DNA of 64,000 bases, from the IMG/VR virus record IMGVR_UViG_3300027973_002292, positions 63,649 through 127,648 of that record. The stretch is one strand, 5' to 3'. Below, in pieces: positions 44,302 to 50,142 of the stretch. Numbering within the stretch: position 1 is the stretch's first letter; the number at the start of each line of letters is the position of its first letter. Position numbers and translations under genes: made by a program. The notes beneath the pieces are model-generated. The model searched no databases, was not told the origin of the DNA, and worked only from the letters and a program-made list of their open reading frames with translations. Source of the DNA: a virus.

Positions 44302-46275
44302 TTAGCGGATAGGGCAAGCTCCACTGCTGCATTCTCCAATGTCGAGCATTTCTGAGCTATTAATGGTTAAATGAGTGGTAGCTTTAACTTTTGACATAGC
44401 AGATAGATATGTCTCCTCATCAATTTCTTGATATGGAGCTTGTTTAAAGCCGTGATTCTTAAACAATAAGAAGCTAACACTCTTAATATTATGTTCGTAG
44501 TTGTCCTTCAGCCAAGCTTTCAATGGCTCAAGTTCTTCTGGTTTATAATAAGCGGTAACAGAAACAGCGTTGTCTGACCATTCAGTTTGCAGTTTTTTAA
44601 CCATATCTAGTTGCTTTAGCACATCCATGTCTTTAGCCAAAATAGAGCCATCAGGAGTCTTGCATGGGAAATAAACAACCACAGTGTCTCGGTTTTCGGT
44701 TCCGTCAAAGTTAATTAGAAACTCAACATGATAGCCCATATCCTTGCAGATTTGAACTAGAGCGTCTGAGCTGGACATTCGAACTGTGCGCATGTAATAC
44801 TCGCTAAACGCTGGGTGAACTCCGGGGGTTGCCCCGCCAAGAAGGCTTAGCGTTCCAGAGGGTTTAATAGTCGTGAGCTTAATGCTTTCAGGCCAACCAC
44901 GAAGCTTGCTCCAAGACCTATCAAAAGAACGCAAAGCAACATAGCAATCGTCAAGCCAATCAAGCTTATGTAAAGACTGGCAAATACCAGTAATGCCAAG
45001 ACCGAGCCGCATATTCTTGTGAACAATTTTATTGGTTTCTTCATGAATAAATGGCAAAGAGGCAATAGCCTTTTGGGTCTTGTAAAGAAGAGTAGCACAA
45101 TCAATCAGCTCTTCTTTTGAAGTAATGTTATTTAGATAAAGTTCGCTAAGATTACAGCATTCATAGTTAGAAAGACTAATCTCGGCGCAAGGATTTGTCA
45201 TTTCGCAATTGTCCGTATCTGTTGGATACATTGAGTTGTCTGACATAGGACCGTCCTTAACGCGTCCGAACTTCTGAGACAATGGCAAATTAAAGAAACC
45301 ATAAGGCTCTCCATTAGCGTAACCACTATCTTTATTTATTTCATATCCATTCTTCCAAATTTCTTCAAGCACATGGTCGTAGCTATCTGCGTAGATAGTA
45401 TTGTTGCTCATAGCTCTCCAGTTTGGCACATTACCAGTGCCCCAATTTTTGGCGCGAAGATAAAGAATATCATCAGGATCGCCTAAAGCTATCTCAGCAG
45501 ACCTTCTAACGTTACCAGCAACAACAACACTACCAATAATGTTGCAGATATCAAGAACATCAATTGAACGAAGTTTTTTATTTTCTCTTGACTGAAAGAT
45601 CTTTGTAATCTTATCGATTCCGTCAATAAGGACTTGTGGGCCAGAAGCTTTTCCGCCAAAGCCCTTGATTGGTTCTCCGTATCCTCTGATAAGAATAGTG
45701 GAGTACGAAAAAGATTTGCCTGTAACATAAAAAGCATCCAATACTTTTGAAAGCAAATTAACCCACCCTTCACGTTTATCAGGAACAATGTGATCAGCGT
45801 CTTTAGATCCTTCATGAATAACCTTTACACTTTTCTTAATCTTAGGTAACTCATGTACGTCTTCTCTGCGAATACTGTACCCGACTCCTCCTCCAAGCAT
45901 CAAGTTCTCAAATAGAAACAAAAATGCATTGGGTTCTCTCATCGCTACTGCCCAGCAATTAAGCAAACTATTTGCACCGAATCTATCTACAGTAGAAGTC
46001 CCAAGCTGCCAAAGCATGCGCCCAGCAAAATTGCATTTTAGATTAAAAACATAATCATAAATTCTCTCTGCTTCAGATTCCGTATAACCAGCGCCGATCT
46101 TTTGAGCGCCGTTAATGCACCTCTCTACGGTTTCGTGCCATTCTTCAGAGCTTCCATCTTCCTTAAGGCGCGAATAAGTTCTTTTATATACTATATATCC
46201 GAGTCCGTTGAATCCCCAATTTGGCTGCTTGTTTTTATATTTATTTACAAAATCCTTGGAAAGAGTCGAGATCAT
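44302..46275 (-). CDS. nrdJ: Class II (adenosylcobalamin-dependent) ribonucleotide reductase, monomeric RTPR type
   Basis: RTYSR, GNVRRSA, TNPCAEI, TIKPSGT and C-terminal CSSGACPIR. Start set at ATG 46275. Confidence 0.93.
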   Translation of the reverse strand: MISTLSKDFVNKYKNKQPNWGFNGLGYIVYKRTYSRLKEDGSSEEWHETVERCINGAQKIGAGYTESEAERIYDYVFNLKCNFAGRMLWQLGTSTVDRFGANSLLNCWAVAMREPNAFLFLFENLMLGGGVGYSIRREDVHELPKIKKSVKVIHEGSKDADHIVPDKREGWVNLLSKVLDAFYVTGKSFSYSTILIRGYGEPIKGFGGKASGPQVLIDGIDKITKIFQSRENKKLRSIDVLDICNIIGSVVVAGNVRRSAEIALGDPDDILYLRAKNWGTGNVPNWRAMSNNTIYADSYDHVLEEIWKNGYEINKDSGYANGEPYGFFNLPLSQKFGRVKDGPMSDNSMYPTDTDNCEMTNPCAEISLSNYECCNLSELYLNNITSKEELIDCATLLYKTQKAIASLPFIHEETNKIVHKNMRLGLGITGICQSLHKLDWLDDCYVALRSFDRSWSKLRGWPESIKLTTIKPSGTLSLLGGATPGVHPAFSEYYMRTVRMSSSDALVQICKDMGYHVEFLINFDGTENRDTVVVYFPCKTPDGSILAKDMDVLKQLDMVKKLQTEWSDNAVSVTAYYKPEELEPLKAWLKDNYEHNIKSVSFLLFKNHGFKQAPYQEIDEETYLSAMSKVKATTHLTINSSEMLDIGECSSGACPIR

Positions 46276-46288
46276 AAGGTAAGATGAG

Positions 46289-46294
46289 TTACAC
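46289..46294 (-). promoter_or_regulatory. GTGTAA motif (candidate phage-sigma promoter)
   Basis: GTGTAA-N13-ATG(46275) in a short intergenic gap. The same motif precedes three other genes. Confidence 0.45.
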
Positions 46295-46314
46295 AATAAC
46301 TCTGCTTTTTGGAT

Positions 46315-47831: not shown

Positions 47832-48137
47832 TTAGAGAACGCCTTCGTCATCTAGAACCTCTTGCTTGGGCTTTGATTGGCCCTGAGAAGCTCCACTCTT
47901 CGCAGGAGCACCCGAAGCGGCTTCTTCAGTTTTCTTTTCGGACAGATAAATCCTGAAATCAGGAGCCTTATCTGTCTTCTTGTCCTTATTGGAGAAGACC
48001 ACTACGTCAATCTTTCCCTCTAGGGATGTTTGCATGTGACCGGTCATGTACTTTTGGCTCTTATCTTTACTTAATTTAAGCCACAAAGCACCGACCTCTC
48101 GGCGAGTCCAGTTACTTTCGTTTTTATTATCGCTCAT
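47832..48137 (-). CDS. DUF736-like small ssDNA-binding-type protein with acidic tail
   Basis: VGALW....KYMTG...N..K..DKAPDFRIY motif and C-terminal LDDEGVL. Confidence 0.65.
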   Translation of the reverse strand: MSDNKNESNWTRREVGALWLKLSKDKSQKYMTGHMQTSLEGKIDVVVFSNKDKKTDKAPDFRIYLSEKKTEEAASGAPAKSGASQGQSKPKQEVLDDEGVL

Positions 48138-48146
48138 TACTTGTAC

Positions 48147-48174
48147 AGTAAGGATTGCAAAACAAAAATGTCAA
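48147..48174 (-). promoter_or_regulatory. Sigma70-type promoter
   Basis: TTGACA(48174-48169)-N16-CTTACT(48152-48147)-N9-ATG(48137). Confidence 0.55.
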
Positions 48175-48776
48175 ACAAAATCACAAGAATTTTTGCTCTC
48201 AACTTTATTTTTCAAAAAAGATCTAGTCTTTTCGTGCAAGTTAATTGCGGTTTGAGTGCTTACTCCAAGTTTTTTTGCTATAGAATTCCAAGTTGCAAGC
48301 TTTTCTTCTCCCGAAAAATAACGAAGCTCATAAACTTTTTTGATTCTTTCGTCCTTAAAAGAAGAGAGCAATGAAAGTAAATAAGAATAAGTGTCGGTAT
48401 TCTTATCTTCAGTAATTAAGATGTCTTTGTTATTAAAGAAGTCGATTTTATTTTCTTCAGCTAACATATACTTCTTGTTAGAATTTATGTAGTTTAAGAA
48501 ATGATATTTAACGCAATTACAGAACCAAGTTGAAAACTTCGTTTTCTGCTCCGCATCGAAAGACTTTAGAGCTTTATAAAGAACAAAGTCTTTTTCGTAT
48601 TTGATATCGTCTTTATTCATGCCAGCCTTAATTAAGGTAGAGCAGTATTTCTGGGCGATTGAGTAGTAGAAGTTATCGTACAGCTTAGAAAGCTGTTCGA
48701 AACTATCGTTGCAGTTGTCTTGCTTAACCTTAGATATAAGATCAAGCTCAGTGTTATCGATTTTTACTTTTTCCAT
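48171..48776 (-). CDS. Phage-encoded sigma70-family RNA polymerase sigma factor
   Basis: Region 2 (LYKALKSFD..QKTKFSTWF) and region 4 HTH (ELRYF....TWNSIAKKLGVSTQTAINLH). Confidence 0.85.
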   Translation of the reverse strand: MEKVKIDNTELDLISKVKQDNCNDSFEQLSKLYDNFYYSIAQKYCSTLIKAGMNKDDIKYEKDFVLYKALKSFDAEQKTKFSTWFCNCVKYHFLNYINSNKKYMLAEENKIDFFNNKDILITEDKNTDTYSYLLSLLSSFKDERIKKVYELRYFSGEEKLATWNSIAKKLGVSTQTAINLHEKTRSFLKNKVESKNSCDFV

Positions 48777-48785
48777 GGTGTTCCT

Positions 48786-48824
48786 TTATTCTTCGGAAAC
48801 AGCCATCGCCTTTGAATTTTCCAT
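48786..48824 (-). other. Short upstream ORF 2, MENSKAMAVSEE
   Basis: ATG 48824 to TAA 48786. In frame with, and 9 nt before, the sigma ATG. Confidence 0.4.
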
Positions 48825-48958
48825 TGAGTTGGTTAAAGAAATAGCAGGTCAACTGAGAGTTTTATTCCTCAGTTTATTTAATCAAATCTCACCTACATCA
48901 GTCATCGCATCTCCGGCTTTAGATAGTCCGTTTAGCTAGTAACTGAGATTTGCTATTT

Positions 48959-49012
48959 CTATAGTTGTTTTGTGGGCGACTTATTTTTTGACACAGCCAT
49001 CGCCTTTTCCAT
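48959..49012 (-). other. Short upstream ORF 1, MEKAMAVSKNKSPTKQL
   Basis: ATG 49012 to TAG 48959. Shares KAMAVS with uORF2. Confidence 0.4.
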
Positions 49013-49206
49013 TTGAGAGGAATAAGTTTCTAGCAGTTTTATACAGTGGCCTTTTGGACGCCGCTTCTCCCGAACAAACGCTGAGATTTCTCTCAACCAC
49101 TGTAGTCTTTTTACGGGCTTGTTGTCTCTTACGAGTTTAAATAAAGATGCTATCTTTAAGTGAGCATGGTTTTGCTCAAGCTACCTCCCACGCAACTATT
49201 CAAAGA

Positions 49207-49234
49207 ACGATGGACCATTTCCCTTTAAAGTCAA
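49207..49234 (-). promoter_or_regulatory. Sigma70-type promoter driving the structured RNA
   Basis: TTGACT(49234-49229)-N16-CATCGT(49212-49207). Predicted start ~49200 coincides with the 5' strand of the outer helix. Confidence 0.65.
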
Positions 49235-49235
49235 A

Positions 49236-49643
49236 CTAATTCTTAAGATTTTCTTCCGAAACTTTAGACGCAATAAATATCAGATTTTTCAAGTCTTTTT
49301 CCGTGATGTTTTTTGGATCGCATTTATCGGAGTCATTCTTAAGATTTTCGCAGACTTTATTTATTACACTTGCAATTCCAGCCGCAAGAAGATAATTAAT
49401 CTCCAAATCTTGAGAAAACGCTTCCAAGGGTTTAAATAAAACCCAATGAGTTTCATTGTCTACTGTTGCGGACTTTACAATGCCAGACTTTTCCATTTCA
49501 GAAAGAGCACACAGCACTGCTGCCTTATCGTCGTTTTCCTTATCGGTTACTAGAACTATCTTTTTAAAGTCTCTTCTTAAATTTAATACTTGGTTTTCAT
49601 TAAAGAATTCGTTGAGGTTTAAATACGCATCTAAAATAGTCAT
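49236..49643 (-). CDS. Hypothetical protein (possible winged-helix)
   Basis: 135-aa ORF. CATACT lies 7 nt upstream of the ATG. Confidence 0.7.
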   Translation of the reverse strand: MTILDAYLNLNEFFNENQVLNLRRDFKKIVLVTDKENDDKAAVLCALSEMEKSGIVKSATVDNETHWVLFKPLEAFSQDLEINYLLAAGIASVINKVCENLKNDSDKCDPKNITEKDLKNLIFIASKVSEENLKN

Positions 49644-49719
49644 ATATACAAGTATGCCACTTAATAAAAAAAAGCAAACTTTAAATTGACTTTTATATTA
49701 AAATCTAGATAATTCTGTT
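49644..49719. promoter_or_regulatory. Divergent promoter pair
   Basis: (+) TTGACT(49686-49691)-N16-GATAAT-N6-GTG(49720). (-) weak -35 near 49672-49678, CATACT(49656-49651)-N7-ATG(49643). Confidence 0.6.
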
Positions 49720-50142
49720 GTGGATATTCACATCAAGTTGCTTAGCGAAAAAGCGGTGATCCCAACTAAAGCCACCGCGTTCTCTGCTGGATACGACCTA
49801 TACGCCGCTGAGGACGCAGAGGTTCCAAAGCTTTGCAGAAAGCTTATTAAAACTAATGTTAGCATGGCTATTCCAATCAACAATTACGGAAGAATTGCTC
49901 CAAGATCTGGATTGGCTTTTAAGAGCGGCATCGATGTGCTCGCTGGCGTTATTGACGCTGATTATAGGGGAGACATTGGAGTTATTCTTTATAACACTGA
50001 TCCTAATATTGACTTTAAAGTAAAGCAGGGGGACAAGATTGCCCAAATTGTTATTGAAAAATGTTACGATATTAACTGGGTAAAGTCTGAATCTTTAATC
50101 GAGACCAAGAGAGGAGGTCAGGGATATGGACATTCAGGCTAG
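49720..50142 (+). CDS. dut: Trimeric dUTPase
   Basis: AGYDL, IAPRSGLA, GVIDADYRG, GDKIAQ and RGGQGYGHSG (motifs I-V). Confidence 0.97.
   Translation: MDIHIKLLSEKAVIPTKATAFSAGYDLYAAEDAEVPKLCRKLIKTNVSMAIPINNYGRIAPRSGLAFKSGIDVLAGVIDADYRGDIGVILYNTDPNIDFKVKQGDKIAQIVIEKCYDINWVKSESLIETKRGGQGYGHSG

Follow-up and report, generated by a model that had tools for sequence, protein, structure and literature searches.

Why should a gap between two genes of an uncultured phage hold more than 300 nt of conserved, structured sequence, and what could it do there? The gap in question occupies positions 48777-49235 of a 64,000-nucleotide stretch of DNA (hereafter the window) taken from the IMG/VR virus record IMGVR_UViG_3300027973_002292, which has 127,648 bases and is classed as linear and 84% complete. 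It is flanked by two open reading frames (ORFs) on the minus strand, one at 49236-49643, here called ORF-X, and a sigma-factor-like one at 48171-48776. An initial annotation, made from the sequence alone, had described the gap as poor in ORFs and had proposed that it encodes a large two-domain RNA acting as the leader of the sigma factor gene. The longest ORFs inside the gap indeed have at most 45 aa. It is close to certain that the gap encodes a genuine, uncatalogued structured RNA family. Members of this family carry a short sequence twice, and the second copy lies next to the start codon of the following gene.

A structured RNA of two domains

Every helix drawn in the initial annotation is present in the sequence on the minus strand. 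The folding energy of this strand was -128.2 kcal/mol, compared with -102.1 ± 6.2 kcal/mol for 100 dinucleotide shuffles, none of which folded as well (z = -4.19, 0/100); the plus strand gave z = -3.24. Since the alignment over all clades was too gappy (RNAalifold energy -10.3 kcal/mol), covariation was evaluated on alignment A6, made of 39 distinct sequences from the window's broad clade; its RNAalifold consensus comprises 103 pairs in 19 helices. Unless another alignment is named, the pairing statistics below refer to A6. Compensatory changes were detected in 45 of the 103 pairs as against 34.5 ± 2.1 in shuffles (0/500), and in 395 cells as against 114 ± 10 (0/500). Pairing cells amounted to 95.4%, compared with 86.0 ± 0.3% in shuffles (0/500) and 36.6-48.4% in slid controls.

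The individual helices largely bore out the proposed fold. At the closure of domain 1, both sides changed in all eight pairs of helix P1 (49193-49199/48961-48967) and in three of the four pairs of helix P1b (49187-49191/48972-48976). Inside this domain, the same was observed for five of six pairs of the hairpin 49142-49158, two of three pairs of the CUC-GUAA-GAG hairpin (49126-49135), five of seven pairs of the 8-bp helix 49042-49049/49097-49104, and three of five pairs of the UGAGA-GAAA-UCUCA hairpin, which showed 100% pairing cells. The hairpin 49161-49178 likewise showed 100% pairing cells, with one pair changing from A-U to G-C in 12 of the 39 sequences. A further pairing, GCUU:AAGC, also covaries (variants GCUU:AAGC, GCC:GGC, ACC:GGU and GCGC:GCGC; both-side changes in two of four pairs, 90.1% pairing cells). 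In domain 2, both-side changes were found in ten of 13 pairs of the stem 48944-48950/48885-48891 and in six of eight pairs of the helix 48868-48874/48851-48857. Besides the helices, the motif GCCCGU..AAAG.C within the mostly unpaired segment 49105-49125 is retained even in the most distant clades. One element of the proposed fold did not generalize: the 10-bp helix 48951-48960/48837-48846, given as the closure of domain 2, is perfect in the window, but among the relatives only a 5-bp core is retained, with 62.8% pairing cells and both-side changes in no pair. This helix is specific to the window's clade.

Domains 1 and 2 are not independent, since a covarying 4-bp pairing connects them. The pairing is invariant within A6. 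Across the 116 distinct rows of the whole family it reads AGUC:GACU in 96, AGUU:AACU in five, AGUU:GACU in one, A(A/G)CC:GGUU in five and AACC:GGAU, which has one mismatch, in two, while seven rows are gapped; three of its four pairs thus show compensatory change. The features are collected in Table 1.

Table 1. Coordinates of the RNA, its elements and the flanking genes in the window
Feature	Position	Strand	Details
Whole RNA, two domains and tail, ~424 nt	48777-49200	(-)	nhmmer family and covariation on A6; ends at the sigma start codon
-35 box TTGACT	49229-49234	(-)	conserved, sigma-70-type
Weak -10 element CATCGT	49207-49212	(-)	16 nt past -35; predicts a start near 49200
P1, 5' strand AUAGUUG	49193-49199	(-)	partner CAACUAU 48961-48967; closes domain 1
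P1b, 5' strand GUGGG	49187-49191	(-)	partner CCCAC 48972-48976
GCUU	49178-49181	(-)	partner AAGC 49063-49066; competes with a small UUC/GAA hairpin stem
Hairpin GAGCA-AAACCA-UGCUC	49162-49177	(-)	A6
Hairpin UAAAGAU...AUCUUUA	49142-49158	(-)	A6
CUC-GUAA-GAG hairpin, GNRA loop	49126-49135	(-)	A6
Highly conserved ACAACAAGCCCGUAAAAAGAC, mostly unpaired	49105-49125	(-)	near-invariant in A6
8-bp helix, strand UACAGUGG	49097-49104	(-)	partner CCACUGUA 49042-49049; surrounds the GAAA hairpin and the CGGGAG element
UGAGA-GAAA-UCUCA hairpin, GNRA loop	49082-49095	(-)	A6
GCGUU...GGCGU helix around invariant UUCGGGAGAA	49058-49081	(-)	100% pairing cells, both-side change in 1 pair
Arm 1: CUGCUA-GAAA-CUU, hairpin UUCC..GGAA, AAG-GCGA-UGGCUG	48994-49036	(-)	RNAalifold (39 sequences) and RNAfold (25 tag-family representatives)
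Tag 1 AAAGGCGAUGGCUGU	48993-49007	(-)	exact twin of 48799-48813
Inter-domain strand AGUC	48978-48981	(-)	partner GACU 48900-48903; joins domain 1 to domain 2
Domain 2 core	48883-48953	(-)	stem 48944-48953 with 48883-48891 around conserved GCUAAACGGACU..CUAAAGCCGGAGAUGCGAUGACUGA
Hairpin AACUGAGG...CUCUCAGUU	48851-48874	(-)	A6
Y strand CUGCUAUUUCUU, 5' strand of arm 2	48836-48847	(-)	alternative partner 48951-48960 in the window's clade
Tag 2 AAAGGCGAUGGCUGU	48799-48813	(-)	exact twin of 48993-49007
Tail hairpin	48774-48808	(-)	CGAUGGCUGUUUCC (48795-48808) with GGAACACCAUG (48774-48784), the sigma ribosome-binding site and start codon
Sigma-like gene, 201 aa	48171-48776	(-)	Pfam Sigma70_r2 and PHROG sigma-factor families
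ORF-X, 135 aa	49236-49643	(-)	N-terminal part winged-helix-like (AlphaFold2, Foldseek)

An RNA family in uncultured aquatic phages

The sigma protein as a query identified five IMG/VR loci, and an alignment of sigma homologues identified 80 further ones. A degenerate DNA pattern derived from the conserved core gave 52 viral and 107 metagenome stretches. Iterated nhmmer searches over 329 fetched loci converged on 194 matches representing 116 distinct sequences, 101 of which are full length, and the RNA measures ~380-450 nt across the family. The sequences come from freshwater and marine phage contigs whose names and run labels refer to lakes, rivers and the ocean. When four family members were compared by blastn with 50,697 GenBank phage records, no match was obtained. 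Host or prophage copies were also sought: of five stretches that the pattern gave among 185,579 prokaryote genomes, none was confirmed by nhmmer. The RNA is a marker for a widespread, uncultured group of phages in fresh and marine waters, with no cultured member in GenBank. One metagenome sequence, L260:1492-1910, combines a 5' part like that of clade L096 with a 3' part like that of clade L106, so that its P1 strands are mismatched; it is either a recombinant or an assembly chimera.

No model of Rfam 15 (4227 models) matched the 64-kb window at its gathering score, although the set includes GOLLD, ROOL, OLE, raiA, HEARO, RNase P, tmRNA, T-box, group I/II introns and riboswitches. In E-value mode, the region 48600-49400 gave only four matches, with E-values of 4.2-9.9 and 12-18 bits as compared with gathering scores of 40-197. 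ARAGORN found no tRNA or tmRNA gene in the window, the RNA lies between complete ORFs, and no intron model matched at E ≤ 10, which agrees with the earlier judgement that tRNA, tmRNA and intron signatures are missing. The RNA has the properties of a large ornate orphan RNA: a length above 300 nt, numerous covarying helices, unpaired nucleotides that are conserved, and no assigned function. Few large structured RNAs are strongly supported by comparison of relatives, and for hardly any of these is a function known. Full-text literature searches found no published description of this RNA. A previous screen of IMG/VR predicted RNAs of only 29-151 nt, and its main text makes no reference to sigma; fragments of the present RNA may be contained in its supplementary tables (PMC10690425). 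A term search of the preprint 10.64898/2026.10.21.760802 for the RNA gave no match.

Identical tags in two similarly built arms

An unusual property of the RNA is a short purine-rich sequence that occurs twice, as tag 1 and tag 2. No third copy with up to two mismatches exists in the 127.6-kb record. A use of the tag as a motif elsewhere, for example as a late promoter, was rejected as well, since the tested 9- and 10-mers gave no third site save three chance 9-mers. Among the 101 full-length sequences, the longest direct repeat at a spacing of 120-330 nt had a median length of 15 nt; 96 sequences had a repeat of 9 nt or more and 82 one of 12 nt or more, whereas shuffles reached 12 nt in one of 101. 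The spacing of the tags in these sequences is 188-243 nt (median 199). The tags are 12-18 nt long, identical within a genome and different between clades. They form ~25 families, such as GGCGAUGGUAG, GGCAAAUGGUGGA, GGAUAAGCAGUCA, GCUAGGAGUCAU and GCUGGUAGCACA, and in some clades the agreement is limited to the first 8-11 nt. In an alignment of 40 sequences, mutual information ranked the tag 2 twin first among the partners of each of the six variable columns of tag 1.

Each tag is the 3' strand of an arm, and both arms have the same layout: a 5' box, (GAAA-)CUU, a small hairpin, an A-rich linker, AAG and the tag. The 5' strands of the arms are pyrimidine-rich. Arm 1 is located inside domain 1; arm 2 comes after domain 2, its end being 2-70 nt from the next start codon. 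A G/A position of the two 5' boxes changes in the same nine of the 39 sequences. Since the two tags of a genome are identical, as are its two 5' boxes in the window's broad clade, either tag can pair with either 5' strand, which would allow a partner exchange among these four strands. In L143-type loci (e.g. L179:324-413, minus strand), the conserved GAAGAUUGUUA that follows tag 2 has the potential to pair with the tag's 3' half (AGCAGUC/GAUUGUU). Arm 2 of this clade, the largest marine and freshwater one, contains an additional hairpin, GAAAGCC...GGCUUUC.

A third RNA partner of the tags was sought by complementarity scans, column-binned scans, cognate-energy scans and mutual information, and none was found. 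The Y strand recurred as a tag complement in 6-7 of ten families in the column-binned scan and in six of 25 in the energy scan, with no specificity upon permutation. Two short sequences that are kept identical through ~25 versions with no detected third partner constitute an unusual evolutionary signature, which points to strand exchange, to a twin-site RNA-protein particle or to RNA-DNA pairing. Any of these roles, if true, would add to the knowledge of how phages time gene expression.

The tags might instead encode twin short leader peptides (MEKAMAVSKN and MENSKAMAVSEE in the window), whose translation would exert an attenuation-like control. Both tags indeed lie in short ATG-started frames in this window. 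However, the upstream ATG (CAAAUGG) is restricted to the nearest relatives of the window, CAAAGG or CAAGGG taking its place in most of the 39 sequences, and many tag families, e.g. GGAUAAGCAGUCA, GCUAGGAGUCAU and GCUGGUAGCACA, have no ATG at all. Moreover, the sequence after the tag differs between the two copies, so that no peptide is conserved. Control by such peptides is therefore very improbable.

Putative promoter and transcription of the RNA

The initial annotation had placed a TTGACT-N16-CATCGT promoter directly upstream of the RNA. Both boxes and their spacing are present, but the -10 hexamer matches the consensus at only three of six positions and fails a consensus scan. The start predicted from the boxes coincides with the first paired base (~49200), as had been proposed. 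In all clades the -35 box is kept as TTGAC(T/A) or TTGCTT, and a varying spacer of 16-17 bases leads to a TAnnnT-like hexamer followed by P1; at the same spacing, the -10 element of other clades is TATACT, TAGACT or TAAAAC. A loose TTGnn-N16-18-nAnnnT pattern was present upstream of 97 of the 101 full-length sequences, a count given without a shuffle control. The conservation of these motifs supports a putative promoter of the RNA's own, of the sigma-70 type used by the host. At the other end, no terminator-like site was detected between the RNA and the sigma ATG, as the annotation had stated, and the sole terminator-like site flagged inside the RNA is the GAAA hairpin.

Metatranscriptome contigs from four runs of four lake-water or freshwater studies cover positions 48611-49545 at a depth of 2.4-6.1. 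These contigs show presence in RNA libraries, not the start, end or strand of a transcript, and the uncovered segments 48300-48610 and 49546-49700 are uninformative. They give weak support to transcription of the RNA.

A long helix enclosing the whole RNA (49196-49225/48793-48817) appears in the minimum-energy fold but was rejected as a general feature because it is absent from other families. Its cognate energy was -20.8 kcal/mol, compared with -7.9 ± 2.5 kcal/mol, in the close relative L004 and -14.1, compared with -9.8 ± 1.8 kcal/mol, in L116. It lies upstream of the predicted transcription start and would be relevant only to transcripts reading through from ORF-X. In the window's clade, the promoter spacer and -10 region are complementary over ~22 bp to the region of tag 2, and an insertion in L004 is matched on the opposite strand.

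Connection with the downstream start site

In this phage, the RNA is predicted to end in a tail hairpin that covers the ribosome-binding site and start codon of the sigma-like gene. RNAalifold predicted this hairpin, including one compensatory pair, from the four distinct sequences of the window's clade. The tail pairing in L004 had an energy of -20.1 kcal/mol, compared with -8.0 ± 2.9 kcal/mol for the tags of other clades. Across families, the region of tag 2 paired with its own start site at -7.41 kcal/mol and with permuted ones at -6.43 ± 0.46 kcal/mol (99/5000), which is a weak general signal. The start of tag 2 lies 14-86 nt before the next start codon in 20 of the 21 families with a readable ORF; four of the 25 family representatives do not have enough downstream sequence, and one value of 223 nt rests on a doubtful TTG. 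At L290:1982-2051, the ribosome-binding site AGGAG, 6 nt ahead of the ATG that opens the next ORF, is part of tag 2 (GCUAGGAGUCA) itself, which makes the tag the start region there.

The gene that follows is not always a sigma factor. At 87 loci, the first downstream ORF was sigma-like in 41, P-loop-kinase-like in 22 and other in 24, yet a sigma-like ORF was present within 3.5 kb downstream in 48 of the 55 loci long enough to judge. Thus, the RNA heads an operon that usually contains a sigma factor and is not tied to the sigma gene itself. The sigma-factor leader proposed in the initial annotation is therefore plausible in this phage, where the tail can cover the sigma start, but is not supported as a general rule. 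Its suggested part in timing the early-to-late switch is conjectural. What is shared with riboswitch-type elements is the position, a same-strand 5' leader with neither a gene nor a terminator between the RNA and the downstream gene.

A proposed leader that gates the start site

We favour, with about even confidence, the reading that the RNA is a cis-acting leader gating the downstream start site, because arm 2 always abuts a start codon, no terminator intervenes, and tag 2 can mask the sigma start in this phage. Uncultured aquatic phages would produce the RNA from its own sigma-70-type promoter, as the first element of an early or middle operon. Domain 1, which is closed by P1 and P1b and contains several hairpins, two of them with GNRA loops, docks to domain 2 through the 4-bp pairing. 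In this phage, tag 2 would be held either in arm 2 with the Y strand or on the sigma ribosome-binding site and start codon, where it would block initiation, and the Y strand could alternatively be captured by 48951-48960 or by tag 1. The choice among these pairings may be set by the settling of the large tertiary fold or by a bound factor. A more specific version, which we put forward only tentatively and regard as unlikely, is that the twin arms are a built-in four-strand exchange device, whose strands swap partners like a migrating four-way junction. If true, such a device would couple the start site of the phage's regulatory operon either to the folding of a 400-nt sensor or to a single co-evolving factor bound by both arms. 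Large phage riboregulators of this kind would form a new class, one whose regulatory sequence is maintained in duplicate by selection and not by pairing with a third strand.

Several results weigh against a gating leader with exchanging arms. A clear pairing of tag 2 with the start site is confined to some clades, and most clades have their own ribosome-binding site nearer the start codon. A conserved tertiary fold of 400 nt far exceeds the needs of a start-site hairpin. The arm helices vary on one side only (pairing cells of 86.7-100% in arm 1 and 98.9% for Y with tag 2), and tag 1 paired with Y in 88.2% of cells as against 88.1% in shuffles (238/500). Swapping tags between families did not reveal specificity, as the cognate energies were -5.16 vs -4.94 ± 0.29 for the 5' box with tag 1 (1133/5000) and -8.06 vs -8.15 ± 0.38 for Y with tag 2 (2941/5000). 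On a model-fitted alignment restricted to arm 2, with 26 rows of which one is probably spurious, support for Y with tag 2 was modest: 84.8% paired as against 82.5% (11/500), with both-side changes in seven pairs as against 2.9 (0/500) and in ten cells as against 6.5 (27/500). In A6 as a whole, the number of further pair types was no better than in shuffles (109 vs 111.6; 426/500). Finally, four of the RNA-library contigs cross the promoter; they could represent read-through transcripts or DNA carry-over.

In a rival explanation, the RNA works in trans, as a stable RNA or RNA-protein particle in its own right like GOLLD or ROOL, and is merely transcribed ahead of the operon, its identical arms being twin sites for one co-evolving factor. 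This factor could be ORF-X, some other protein of phage or host or, within an oligomer, a second molecule of the RNA. In favour of such a particle, the conserved tertiary complexity is high, with many invariant unpaired stretches, the GNRA loops and the pairing between domains; the identity of the tags is kept although no RNA partner was found, and the following gene varies among loci. Homo-oligomers of GOLLD, ROOL and OLE are described in passages of PMC12286853. In 69 of 84 loci, the RNA is preceded on the same strand by an ORF of at least 90 aa whose end lies no more than 160 nt away, and that of the window, ORF-X, has an N-terminal part resembling a winged helix in its AlphaFold2 model (predicted local distance difference test score, pLDDT, 83.5). 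ORF-X is a candidate partner or regulator of the RNA. However, the Foldseek matches of ORF-X were weak (E-values of 0.014-0.1) and were to winged-helix proteins that mostly bind DNA; no Pfam or PHROG family matched it. The lack of a terminator or other defined 3' end and the constant position of arm 2 beside a start codon also speak against a trans-acting RNA. We regard this explanation as possible, though on the unlikely side.

It is quite improbable that the tags act through DNA, either by pairing of tag 1 RNA with the template at tag 2 (or the reverse), the resulting R-loop priming replication or blocking transcription, or as iteron-like sites for ORF-X. Identity of the tags with no complementary RNA partner is what is expected if the RNA of one copy pairs with the DNA of the other, and the tags have the purine-rich composition noted above. 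The fold of ORF-X weakly resembles winged-helix proteins that bind iterons or operators. Furthermore, the locus lies beside nucleotide-metabolism genes and ~450 bp from a point of divergent transcription, which is indicated by a promoter-like TTGACT-16-GATAAT on the plus strand (49686-49713) that points away from the RNA and precedes a dUTPase gene. On the other hand, there are only two repeats, ~200 bp apart, and both occupy the same structural place in two related RNA arms, which indicates a role at the RNA level. Across the 127.6-kb record, the cumulative GC skew runs with the direction of the genes and makes no turn at this locus (112.4-112.9 kb of the record); it was uninformative for a replication origin.

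Comparison with known regulatory RNAs

GOLLD and ROOL have been linked to phages and lake metagenomes. Together with OLE, they resemble the present RNA: all run to hundreds of nucleotides rich in conserved helices and unpaired stretches, none has a known function, and all were discovered by comparative genomics, largely in environmental sequence. Unlike them, the phage RNA is smaller (~420 nt), is always promoter-proximal and directly before an ORF, and carries twin tags; it matches their Rfam models neither in sequence nor in structure. The name 'Lake- and Lactobacillales-Derived' and the homo-oligomeric assembly of these RNAs are given in PMC12286853.

Riboswitch and T-box leaders share with the phage RNA the place of a same-strand 5' leader with no terminator, a 3' strand that can mask the ribosome-binding site or start (in the window's clade), and three mutually exclusive strands, tag 1 resembling tag 2. 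In riboswitch and T-box switches, a shared partner accounts for the likeness between the 'anti-anti' strand and the masked strand. The phage RNA differs in being 3-4 times the size of a typical aptamer and in matching no riboswitch or T-box model, while its masking hairpin is clear only in some clades and its arm helices lack compensatory proof.

Some translational operators mimic the primary RNA site of a protein, as is the case for the thrS operator, the operators of ribosomal proteins L20 and S15, and T4 gene 32. There, as in the phage RNA, a motif occurs twice, once in a structured RNA and once beside a start codon, and a protein that binds the first can repress through the second. In the phage RNA, however, the gene beside arm 2 differs between clades, so that simple autoregulation by the downstream product is unlikely. 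A resemblance between upstream and downstream segments of a promoter-driven structured RNA is also found in ColE1 RNA II, a long replication primer whose upstream segment resembles a downstream segment and pairs with the template DNA. In contrast to ColE1, the phage locus has no sign of an origin in its GC skew and no antisense RNA gene, and protein-coding genes follow directly.

With ~100 natural variants that differ in sequence, a defined promoter and a constant location at the start of an operon that usually carries the phage's own sigma factor, the RNA has a role that can be tested directly.

Neighbouring genes

The sigma-like gene matched PHROG sigma-factor families with an E-value of 5.8e-10 and Pfam Sigma70_r2 with an E-value of 7.5e-5 and 22.9 bits, slightly below the 24-bit cut-off. 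Its protein had no match among the 50,697 GenBank phage records. To the right of ~49700 the genes are oppositely oriented and include the dUTPase gene (49720-50142). Besides the dUTPase and a ribonucleotide reductase, the neighbouring genes encode a dCMP-deaminase-like protein and a nucleotide kinase. A ribonucleotide reductase of 664 aa is encoded at 44302-46296 on the minus strand; its best matches among GenBank phages were Maribacter phage Panino (49.3% identity) and a spring-water Caudoviricetes contig (48.8% identity), which are a weak hint on relatives and not evidence of the host. On the 3' side of the sigma gene lies a gene for a DUF736 protein with the motif ELGALWKK (47832-48137, minus strand), which is syntenic in other ORF-listed loci.

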